Source: a virus (Duplodnaviria; Heunggongvirae; Uroviricota; Caudoviricetes). Taken from it: 35,376 bases of DNA. The stretch is from the IMG/VR virus record IMGVR_UViG_2703718783_000008; one strand, 5' to 3'. A program made the position numbers. This document shows positions 9,001-12,000 of the stretch, piece by piece; position 1 is the first letter of the stretch, and the number at the start of each line of letters is the position of its first letter.

Positions 9001-12000
9001 ACGTAGAAGTCACACAGCCACAAATGCGGCAGTTATGAAAAACGAATGATGAAGGGCTTGTATGTCCCAGAATTACGTTCAGACAGAGATGCCATCTAGG
9101 CACTGCCAGGCAGACGAAGAGTGGATTCAGCAGCAGTTACAGGGGCTGCCTCCGTCACTGAGACGGAAGGTCGCCCTGAAATATGCGGAGGTATACGAAA
9201 TCACTTTTGACGCTGAGCCTGTTTCATTCCGCAAGGAGAACAGAGCAAGGCACGAAGCAAACACAAGGCTCCGCTTGTTTGTGAGAAATCAGGGCAGAGC
9301 TTTACAGGGGTATACAACTCAGCCGCCCCTGGCAGGAACGCAATCGCGCTCCTGATTGGTACCGGGCTTAAAGGTGTCCGGTGGCTGAATCCCAAATCTC
9401 ATTGCATTTGTGTACTAGCTAAGGAGTACATGCAAAATTCAGTGAGAGGAGGGGAGGGGGAGGAGTGCTCGTGTGTTAGTGCGAAGCACTGGAACAGGCT
9501 TTTCCAACAGACGGGTACATAGGTTAGGTAGATCTCGATCTAAAGGGGGATACCCCTGAAAAAACGGCCGTACCATAAAGCTAGTACAAGATGGATAAAA
9601 AGTATGAGTGAAGACCTGAAGCAAAATTTAATCGCTCTCCTGGAAGAGCAATTCATTCGCTCCGATGACAAAGTCGTTTTCGATTATGTGATGCAGAAAA
9701 AAATCAAGTCTCAGGGATACCACCTGCAACGCAATTTCAGCATCAGCATTAGCGGTGGTCGTAAAGGGTTTATTGATTGCCTGGTTACATCATCAGACGG
9801 CCAGCAGTGTGCCATTGAGGTCGATAAGAAGTCTCCCCGCAACCGTTCGTTGATGAAGCTGGCTCAGCTACCTGAGGGGATGTCAGGCTTTGTCCTGCTC
9901 AGGGATGGTAAGCACCCTCTTCGATATAGCGAGAACGGAATTGACGTTATTCGTGCGACGAAATTTAAGTGAGTTGATTCGGAAAGGGGCTGGCAGCCTT
10001 TGGGGAGACCACCAGCCATGTGAGGAGGAATCCATGAAAACCACATCACAAAATTATTATCTCATCACTGCGGGGACAGCACAATGCAGCTGACAATCAC
10101 GCCGAATTTTGCACAGGAACGAGCGTTAAACATGTTGCGCCGTGACTGGAAGGCAAACGACACCTTCATGGTGTACTCGCCAACCGGTAGCGGTAAAACG
10201 GGTTTGGCCGCCTTCATCGTTGCCGGGTTTGTCAGCCGTGGTATGCGCGTCCTGTTCTGTGCACCGTACACCATCCTGATCGGTCAGACGGCTAATCGGT
10301 TCGTGGAGTATGGATTACCGGGGGATGAAATCGGTTATATCTGGGCGGACCACCCGAACTACGATCCGGACCGGAAAATTCAGATTGCCAGCGCCGACAC
10401 GCTTATTCGTCGTGTTTTTCCTGAAAATATTGATCTGCTGATTATCGACGAAGCACACCTGCGTAAAAAACGCATCCTGAAGGATATCGAACGTCTGCGC
10501 GGTAAAGGCGTAAAGGTGATTGGCCTGTCGGGTACTCCGTTTTCCCCGTTCCTGGGCAAATACTATGACCGACTGATTAAGCCGACCACCATCGGCGAGT
10601 TAATCCAGCGTGGCGATCTGAGTAAATACGAATTTTACGCGCCAACTAAGCCGGATCTGAAAGGTGTTAAAACCACATCTTCGCTTGAGTACGGCCGCGA
10701 TTACAACGAAACACAGCTGGCTGAAATCATGTGCGGCTCTACGCTGGTGGGCGACATCGTACAGAACTGGCTGGAGAATGGTCGGGATCTACCTACCATC
10801 GCTTTCTGCGTCAACGTAGCCCACGCCAATTACCTGACAATCCAGTTTAACCTCGCAGGTGTTAACGCTGAGGTAATGACCGCAGACACTCCGGTAGATG
10901 AGCGCCAGACCATCATTCACCGCTTTGAAACTGGTGCAACGAAAATCATCGTTAGTGTGGGCGTTCTGGTGGCCGGCTTTGATAGTGACGTTCGTTGCAT
11001 CATCTACGCCAGGCCAACAAAAAGCGAAATTCGCTGGTTGCAGGCACTCGGGCGTGGGCTGCGCACCGCACCGGGTAAAGAGTCCTGCCTTATCTTCGAT
11101 CACAGCGGCACCGTGCACCGTTTGGGTTATCCGGATTCAATCGAGTACGACGATCTTCCCGGTAAGTCTGACGGCATGGAGGAAAGCGCGCGCCGCGCAG
11201 TTGAGGAACGGGCCGAAAAACTGCCACATGAATGCCCTCAATGCCACTACATGAAGCCAGCTGGCGTCTATGTTTGCCCTAAATGTGGACACAAGCCGCT
11301 GCGAGGTGAAGATGTTGATACTGACACTAGCCGCAAACTTAATAAGCTGGGTAAAAATCAGCATCAGTCGACGAAGGCAGAGAAACAGTCCTGGTGGAGT
11401 CAGATCAAATTTTATCAGCGCCAGCGTGCTTCGCTGGGGCGTCCAGTCAGTGATGGATGGTGTGCTCACACTTTCAGGGAGAAATTCGGTGAATGGCCTG
11501 ATGGGTTGAGCAGTTTCCCGATGGAAATAAGCCCAGAAGTAAGTAACTACATCAAACACAAGCTGATTCGGTTTGCCAAAGGCCGTCAGCGGACGCAGAG
11601 AACTATAGAAAAATTGCAGGCAACAATTCCTCTGTCTCAGGAACGAGGTGAGCGAAGCGAGATGCCAATAGGCACTGAGGCTTGGCGCATCATGCAAGCA
11701 AAGCAACAACTCCAGAAAAATATAAACAGTTTGAGTCAGTAAGATGAAAACAGCAGCTGCAGCGAAAGGCCGCTGGCCTGAAATATTAGAGCACTTCGGC
11801 TTGCCGCCGATAACAGGAAAAAATCACTTCAAGGGTGAATGCCCGGTATGCGGTGCACGTGGCAAGTTCCGAATTGATGACCGCGACGGTGCAGGAACGT
11901 GGATCTGTGTATGTGGTAGTGGCGATGGTATGAAACTTGTCACCCTGACACAGGCGAAGCCATTTAACGAGATTTGTACCGAAATAGACCGCCTGATCGG

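Follow-up and report, generated by a model that had tools for sequence, protein, structure and literature searches.

The window analysed here is a 35,376-nt stretch of viral DNA (IMG/VR record IMGVR_UViG_2703718783_000008), and this report concerns a gap of 248 nt between two of its genes, at positions 9356–9603. The genes are arranged in the order repressor (7953–8720, minus strand), cro-like gene, 97-aa gene, gap and 122-aa gene, followed by genes for an SF2 helicase and a Toprim/Zn-ribbon primase, a 285-aa gene and Q. The gap belongs to a family, not described before, of non-coding elements that are conserved and folded and lie in the early rightward operon of lambdoid prophages replicating by Eru1-type enzymes and not by lambda O/P. 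The locus comprises the following features.

9062–9355, plus strand: 97-aa gene (phrog_852) for a three-helix Arg-rich protein; its stop codon is 6 nt before the first hairpin of the element.
9356–9592, plus strand: the whole conserved element, about 235 nt, of the group A type; single match of covariance model R1 in the window, 280.8 bits.
9604–9972, plus strand: optional 122-aa gene (phrog_1347), which groups A and E have and groups B, C and D lack.
10084–11742, plus strand: SF2 helicase, part of the Eru1-like replication module at 10084–12712.
11744–12712, plus strand: Toprim/Zn-ribbon primase, part of the same module.

PMC8044961 describes Eru1 as a non-lambdoid replication type with an SF2 helicase and a Toprim primase, and judged by its sequence the module of the window is of this Eru1-like, non-lambdoid type. 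A first-pass annotation of the window had noted the absence of lambda O/P, correctly, since the helicase and the Toprim/Zn-ribbon primase are carried instead. It had also taken the gap to be non-coding, and this was borne out. No open reading frame (ORF) in the gap is conserved in alignments of the homologues, a 30-aa ORF at 9430–9522 loses its ATG in phi467, and a 4-codon mini-ORF proposed in the same annotation falls within a predicted helix; the gap is therefore regarded as non-coding.

The gap of the window is 100% identical to sequences in chromosomes of Escherichia coli strains that make Shiga toxin (Stx) and 96% identical to phi467 by BLAST. Other relatives found by BLAST were Fels-1 and Klebsiella phages, and partial matches to the 5′ end of the element were obtained in Escherichia phage Fostie and in Cronobacter and Yersinia phages, with identity down to 69%. 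Scanning IMG/VR for patterns and then applying nhmmer brought the number of loci to about 100, of which 66 are unique, and a later scan added subgroups. Altogether the element is present in more than 100 viral (IMG/VR) contigs and more than 110 phage records, the hosts being E. coli, Salmonella and Klebsiella, with Stx phages included. A contig scan with TTTTCCAACAGNNNGGTACA yielded chance matches only, in unrelated taxa. Among 5426 complete E. coli genomes three element types were found in 58, 42 and 134, roughly 4% overall, and in none of the genomes carrying one of these types is the element annotated. A literature search on the conserved blocks and on small RNAs of Fels-1 returned nothing relevant; a preprint on the Pas small RNA covers other loci.

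The members fall into six groups. Group A contains the window and Fels-1; groups B and C come mainly from Klebsiella and other hosts; group D has Fostie and ENT39118 among its members, and group F has a short arm. The R1 model also matches every other group. The form in group E is diverged and shorter. The 98 phage records that have it are without exception Eru1 Stx phages, and it keeps only two G-runs and the GGUUAGGUAGAUC block and lacks both the first hairpin (P1, below) and CUUUUCC. The Eru1 unit of Stx phages (PMC8044961, PMC8951638) has the same helicase and primase families as the window, and its representatives TL-2011c, P13374 and Lyz12581Vzw carry this diverged element at the same place as the element elsewhere. 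A term search of these two papers returned no description of an origin or of a non-coding element.

The surroundings of the element are strictly conserved. Upstream, the distance to the end of a phrog_852 homologue is below 120 nt in 90 of 90 loci; on the downstream side the helicase begins within 900 nt in 85 of 86; and the orientation relative to the flanking genes, with the element on the transcribed strand, is the same in all loci. In groups B, C and D the distance from the element to the next gene is 50–165 nt; A and E have an additional gene inserted. At one locus (L127, 7171–7411) a D-type element lies between flanking proteins about 97% identical to those of the window. A- and D-type elements can therefore be regarded as exchangeable alleles, and the features common to both are likely to be the ones that matter. 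At another (L014, 1089–1335) a divergent 5′ arm is joined to a 3′ half identical to the window. It looks as though the element is either a junction of recombination or a cassette that can be swapped.

The conclusion that the plus strand of the element adopts a defined fold is well supported, good support being confined to the 5′ two-thirds. This supports the structured-RNA option of the first-pass annotation, as a conserved single-strand fold of the transcribed strand. The predicted parts of the fold are these.

9361–9382, plus strand: P1 (or HP1), a 7-bp stem of 9361–9367 with 9376–9382, with the loop UUAAAGGU, an invariant UUAAAGGY.
9390–9455, plus strand: long imperfect hairpin arm, made of P2, P2a and P3.
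9390–9393 with 9452–9455, plus strand: P2, in the arm.
9397–9404 with 9440–9447, plus strand: P2a, in the arm.
9410–9416 with 9425–9431, plus strand: P3, the arm tip, which holds two GUAC.
9459–9505, plus strand: domain 2, made of P4, P5 and P5a.
9459–9464 with 9500–9505, plus strand: P4 (GGAGGA/UUUUCC); 100% of cells pair, with one-sided variation only.
9467–9472 with 9494–9499, plus strand: P5; a CG-to-UA compensatory change, specific to group A.
9476–9482 with 9486–9492, plus strand: P5a, in domain 2.
9544–9548 with 9553–9557, plus strand: variable hairpin, differing in sequence and position between subgroups.
9559–9564, plus strand: conserved A-run, common to groups A, D and F.
9570–9573 with 9584–9587, plus strand: P7, the 3′ GUAY...GUAC pair; 96% of cells pair, with one-sided variation only.

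The cleanest evidence for the fold is P1 on an alignment that had not been fitted to any structure. In a plain MAFFT alignment of 28 sequences compensatory double changes were seen at five of its seven pairs (1–12 sequences per pair), and the wobble pairs of P1 in this alignment amounted to 14 G.U against 2 A.C. The complete structure of 49 pairs was drawn by hand, and a covariance model built from it gave an alignment of 61 sequences, designated A6, on which 94% of P1 cells are paired. Over all groups 91.6% of the A6 cells are paired, and sliding the partners lowers this to 41–57%. Of the 49 pairs, 25 have double changes (most pairs of the arm among them), the number of doubly changed cells being 216 where controls have no more than 59. 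The covariation score is 0.236, with controls staying at or below 0.069, and the observed value was attained by 0 of 500 shuffles; A6 being fitted to the model, these counts lean towards structure. For group A alone the corresponding values are 91.8% of cells paired versus 43–47% and a score of 0.203 versus at most 0.076. When the groups were folded separately, arms of unlike sequence folded alike in A, B, C and D, and the second domain was likewise closed by pairing of the G-rich strand with CUUUUCC. RNAalifold on a plain MAFFT alignment of all groups recovered P1, P3 and P4 only. The great excess of G.U over A.C on A6 (414 versus 47) indicates that the folding strand has transcript sense, and the 17% share of G.U, together with group B arms in which 5 of 17 pairs are required to be G.U, favours RNA over single-stranded DNA.

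In group C and in many members of group D, P1 is present as a tandem duplicate with loops UUUAAAGGUA and UUAAAGGU (seen at L011 8085–8353, L203 3545–3612 and L204 3548–3612), as would be expected of a protein-binding hairpin. We also observed that the P1 loop (9368–9375) is complementary to invariant blocks at 9499–9503 and 9524–9528, AAAGG matching CUUUU and CUUAA matching UUAGG or UUAAG; there is no covariation to judge these contacts by. Group E has a compact local hairpin, UUUCC-UGAA-AGGAA, just before the G-runs (L205, 2465–2480), which may replace such a long-range contact.

An inverted repeat, gtactagct and agctagtac, had been reported by the first-pass annotation and does exist, at 9412–9420 and 9579–9587, each coordinate having been off by 1 nt. 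It was not taken as the main pairing. The alternative pairing of the distal arm 9579–9587 with 9412–9420 shows one compensatory change, in part of group B, and compensatory support is greater for P3, the local GUAC...GUAC hairpin that draws on this 5′ arm (L014, L039, L037). The six GTAC palindromes described earlier were all recovered, at 9359, 9412, 9426, 9515, 9570 and 9584. Six in 248 nt compare with 0.70 expected (about 9-fold; Poisson P about 9e-5), and the gap is the densest GTAC stretch of the 35-kb window. Five of the six belong to family features, namely the P3 stem, the 9514–9534 block and the 3′ GUAY...GUAC pair.

The purine tract and the blocks that are conserved apart from pairing are located as follows.

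9444–9465, plus strand: purine tract; 9444–9455 is the 3′ strand of the arm and 9459–9464 the 5′ strand of P4.
9451–9454 and 9456–9460, plus strand: twin G-runs within the purine tract.
9499–9510, plus strand: block CUUUUCCAACAG, near-invariant in the recovered members of groups A–D and absent from E.
9514–9534, plus strand: block GGUACAUAGGUUAGGUAGAUC, 21 nt, the most widely conserved sequence of the family.
9531–9540: two GATC (Dam) sites 6 nt apart, read from the sequence; group D likewise has two, with a spacing of about 20 nt.

The tract, gagaggaggggagggggaggag, is the 22-nt all-purine run to which attention had first been drawn, and it clearly exceeds chance: it is the longest homopurine or homopyrimidine run of the window (the runner-up has 16 nt), and the recommended G-quadruplex prediction gave it the highest G4Hunter score of the window, 1.92. 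In related phages it was always found in the same position, and the scattered occurrence that had been named beforehand as an argument against a function here was not seen. Part of the original interpretation of the tract has to be given up. Positions 9444–9455 are predicted to pair with 9390–9404 and positions 9459–9464 with CUUUUCC, about half of the tract being in predicted Watson-Crick helices, and because the arm and P4 make use of it the tract is not a free array. Its G-runs in the window are GG, GGGG, GGGGG and GG, only two of them having three or more G; without four such runs a canonical intramolecular G-quadruplex is unavailable. Four runs of at least three G with loops of at most 7 nt occur in groups B, C and D and at one further locus (L230), and since the pattern is confined to these, the canonical structure is not family-wide.

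Conservation of the G-runs goes beyond the need for pairing. Two adjacent runs are found in every group, E included, separated by a spacer of 1–3 nt (A, UAA, UUU, AAA, CAA or UAC), and their lengths co-vary (4/4, 4/5, 5/5, 6/6 and 7/7), being equal in 75% of 101 unique sequences and at most 1 apart in 19 of 21 length/spacer types. The sequence CAUNGGUUARGUAGAUC is likewise present in every group, about 45–60 nt past the G-runs. From these comparisons the universal core of the family is a pair of G-runs of matched length plus CAUNGGUUARGUAGAUC. Much of the apparent invariance of the CUUUUCCAACAG block is due to the search patterns, which required the block or part of it; CUCUUCC, AUCUUCC and CCAAGAG are its variants.

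The 9514–9534 block is identical in groups A and E despite diverged flanks. Groups B and D form a local hairpin, GGUAC/GUACC or GAGAUC/GAUCUC, whose loop contains the block; in A and E, the window included, the two sides do not match and no hairpin is formed, so that sequence rather than pairing seems to be selected at the block in these groups. A common hairpin round GGUUAGGUAG was considered as a family feature and rejected: the registers of B and D are shifted by one base, and in A and E a 5′ side resembling that of B meets a 3′ side resembling that of D, and the two cannot pair.

Searches for known families and signals were largely negative. Rfam 15 at the gathering threshold identified only two tRNAs in the whole window, and at E≤10 region 8700–10200 gave only chance snoRNA and miRNA matches of at most 16 bits; the covariance search suggested by the first-pass annotation thus leaves the element without a match. 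No promoter or terminator was found inside the element, and it is therefore co-transcribed. No iterons (at least three direct repeats of 15–22 bp beside an AT-rich stretch) are present in 7800–14600, and no convincing intrinsic terminator was detected between the element and Q. R1 is present once in the window, with no copy in the PL operon, and found nothing in HK022 positions 23000–31000 (immunity region) at E≤10. A boxA-like CGCUCCUGA upstream was rejected, being coding sequence that is not kept in group B. The hallmarks of put, nut, iteron origins and Rfam families that could be looked for are absent; non-template G-runs downstream of a promoter, the sequence hallmark of R-loop origins, are present.

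We put a probability of roughly 40% on the reading that the element is a transcribed origin or primer region forming an R-loop or a hybrid G-quadruplex. It would be the transcription-dependent start region of a replication module that has no initiator. Transcription from PR would pass through the element, and the twin G-runs, in the non-template strand and in the nascent RNA, would keep a persistent RNA:DNA hybrid in place, be it an R-loop or a DNA:RNA G-quadruplex, the latter needing only two G-tracts per strand. The upstream RNA would fold, possibly with the 97-aa protein on its hairpin, and this folding would limit and position the hybrid, for which RNA II folding in ColE1 can serve as a model. 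About 50 nt downstream the GGUUARGUAGAUC block, as displaced strand or as RNA, might recruit helicase and primase or mark the end of the primer. The complete scheme, in which replication starts without an initiator protein, the PR transcript joins with the two matched G-runs in an R-loop or a hybrid DNA:RNA G-quadruplex, the folded upstream RNA positions this hybrid, and the SF2 helicase and Toprim primase use it, is unlikely as a whole. If true, such an initiator-less start would cover the Stx2f phage of the window as well as the Stx2a phages of Eru1 type from the O104:H4 and O103:H25 outbreaks, and would be a bacterial-virus counterpart of the mitochondrial CSB II (conserved sequence block II).

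The link to replication is supported by the strict synteny with the helicase/primase module; of the proposal that the gap is an origin or a structured non-coding RNA, this link and the conserved fold have stood, and the tract as a free array has not. Vibrio phage 1.148.O (L206) has a helicase 57% identical to that of the window, with the primase gene adjacent, and at the position of the element it has a RepL gene and an iteron array (TACCG...AGTATT, 2360–2560), which indicates that the same enzymes are used elsewhere with a classical initiator. The window itself has no iterons in 7800–14600. The G-runs are on the non-template strand in every locus, and G-skew peaks at 0.45 over 9400–9550 in the window. 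In ColE1 the folded upstream part of RNA II and a G-run cooperate in setting the primer. Two matched G-tracts are the minimum for a co-transcriptional hybrid G-quadruplex such as stabilises the R-loop at CSB II; PMC3488243 and PMC4176368 document both two-tract DNA:RNA hybrid G-quadruplexes and the CSB II R-loop.

Several points weigh against a transcript-dependent origin. There is no AT-rich unwinding element of ordinary size, and the predicted Watson-Crick pairing of much of the G-rich tract competes with a G-quadruplex or R-loop. The matched lengths of the G-runs could result from shared ancestry and homopolymer slippage. Any cis-acting RNA of this operon would be expected to show synteny with replication genes just as much. 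The evidence for the fold has its own weaknesses, in that the A6 counts are biased as stated above and z-scores of minimum free energy do not separate the strands (−2.8 versus −2.9). Of the further analyses recommended for the window, the cumulative GC skew has its minimum at 6–9 kb, which coincides with the divergent PL and PR promoters; being confounded by divergent transcription, it is uninformative.

By analogy the element would be most like transcript-primed origins (ColE1, T4, mitochondrial CSB II) or phage antitermination RNAs (put, nut and eps-associated RNA, EAR). With ColE1 RNA II and CSB II (and also T4 oriF/oriG) it has in common a promoter-distal transcribed region with short G-runs in the RNA and the non-template strand, a folded upstream RNA, the lack of an iteron array and a helicase or primosome acting afterwards. 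It differs from them in that there is no sequence homology, it has no known RNase H site or antisense regulator, its R-loop is putative and its partners are a phage SF2 helicase and a Toprim primase. HK022 put and lambda nutR are, in the same way, cis-encoded RNA elements in the PR operon, here of a lambdoid phage with no recognisable N, and the element too has a small hairpin with an invariant loop beside the gene of an Arg-rich protein. However, it is three times larger than put and is found once rather than twice (putL, putR), and R1 finds no similarity in HK022; compared with lambda nut, its loop UUAAAGGU is of 8 nt rather than the 5-nt GNRA-like boxB, and for boxA CGCUCUUA there is only the rejected CGCUCCUGA. 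EAR of Bacillus is also a structured RNA inside an operon after the first genes, but is unrelated in sequence and structure (no Rfam match). The oriV of IncQ plasmid RSF1010, with ssiA/ssiB, and the G4-type ssi signals share a dedicated helicase and primase and conserved single-strand hairpins beside a GC-rich stretch. IncQ, in contrast, has iterons and the initiator RepC, and its ssi hairpins are about 40 nt and on both strands; the heavy G.U use of the element points to RNA and not to single-stranded DNA.

The main rival, and the second reading that fits the evidence, is that the element acts in cis as an RNA which renders RNA polymerase termination-resistant or protects a long stretch that is not translated from Rho. 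By this means PR transcripts would reach the replication genes and Q with no N protein, and the UUAAAGGY hairpin may be bound by the Arg-rich 97-aa protein as boxB is bound by N. We consider this rather improbable. The element is suitably placed between the promoter-proximal regulators and helicase, primase and Q, is co-transcribed with no promoter or terminator of its own, and has an RNA-like, G.U-rich fold, with the invariant-loop hairpin in one or two tandem copies beside the Arg-rich protein gene. A search of the PL-operon ORFs with PHROGs gave no N-like match, and no N protein is annotated in TL-2011c. HK022 put and the operon-internal EAR provide precedents for a cis-acting antitermination RNA. 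Nevertheless, the single copy of the window leaves the PL operon without one, a convincing intrinsic terminator is missing between the element and Q, R1 gives no match in the HK022 immunity region, the 8-nt loop is not a pentaloop of boxB type, and group E has dispensed with the hairpin, keeping the G-runs and GGUUAGGUAGAUC only. Lower still is the likelihood that the element is a stable non-coding RNA released by processing, or a leader that senses a ligand, and is related to replication by position only; it could then be a sponge, an RNA directed against defence systems, or a regulator that controls the replication genes like a riboswitch. Its size, its several domains and strongly conserved unpaired blocks, and the A- and D-type alleles between flanking proteins about 97% identical would suit such an RNA, as would the two possible partners of the P3 5′ arm, one local and one beside the downstream ribosome site. 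On the other side, it has neither a promoter or terminator of its own, nor a recognisable expression platform, nor an Rfam match, and control of one particular start codon is unlikely because the downstream spacing and gene vary, the next gene being 50–165 nt on in B, C and D and an extra gene being present in A and E.

That the element is purely a double-stranded DNA origin or protein site, with hairpins that are binding-site palindromes and no role for RNA, appears very unlikely. Palindromes (GTAC, GGTACC, AGATCT, GATC) are indeed frequent, the 21-nt block is identical in A and E with a hairpin in neither, and the position is that of the RepL/iteron origin of the Vibrio phage. These observations are opposed by the strand asymmetry of the pairing (G.U 414 versus A.C 47), by compensatory changes that keep pairing and not sequence, by the 5 G.U of 17 pairs required in group B arms and by the lack of iterons. 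The earlier literal reading, a free intramolecular G-quadruplex or a stacked Shine-Dalgarno array serving the mini-ORF, has hardly any probability left. The tract does have the top G4Hunter score of the window, and groups B, C and D have at least four tracts of three or more G with short loops. Yet the tract of the window has only two runs of that length and the one at L014 is merely GGGG-UAA-GGGG, part of the tract covaries with the upstream pyrimidine strand, and no conserved ORF lies downstream for an array to serve.

Whatever its function, the element is a real, widespread and unannotated structured element, an RNA-like motif of about 235 nt new to Rfam and to genome annotation. Highly virulent Stx2a phages have modules of the Eru1 type, and the module of the Stx2f phage in the window is related to these; phage replication amplifies the dosage of the toxin gene. 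As the only conserved non-coding feature of the Eru1-type module, the element bears on the origin and initiation of that module. Twin G-runs of co-varying length are an unusual signature, of general interest whether they act in priming, in antitermination or otherwise.

Some observations concern the neighbouring genes. The 97-aa protein is Arg-rich and has no family name; its AlphaFold model (pLDDT 60) is of low confidence and too uncertain for a fold search, and a profile search against PDB sequences gave chance matches only. Its homologue in TL-2011c (L207 4207–4506, 99 aa) lacks annotation, and the phi346 record labels the phrog_852 homologue 'CII transcriptional activator'. The term search of the two Eru papers turned up neither this gene nor the element. 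In the regions 15923–17158 and 17672–17822, ORFs of 319 aa and 89 aa (stx2f-like genes, 15923–17158) are followed by two tRNA genes. As read from their sequences, these ORFs look like the Stx2f A and B subunits, and on this basis the window would be a phi467-like Stx2f-converting prophage.

Before the helicase gene, positions 9988–10093 form a conserved stretch with a GGCUGG...CCAGCC hairpin and a strong Shine-Dalgarno sequence, GAGGAGGAA, which is near-unchanged in two D-type loci (L203 and L204, about 3885–3985). It includes a 19-codon upstream ORF (10034–10093, MKTTSQNYYLITAGTAQCS) whose stop overlaps the helicase ATG in a different frame. Around the left end of the repressor gene, ATCACCATCAA and TCAAGTTAAAATTGAT motifs are repeated at 7810–7902 and 8116–8162; they are probably the PL-side operators.

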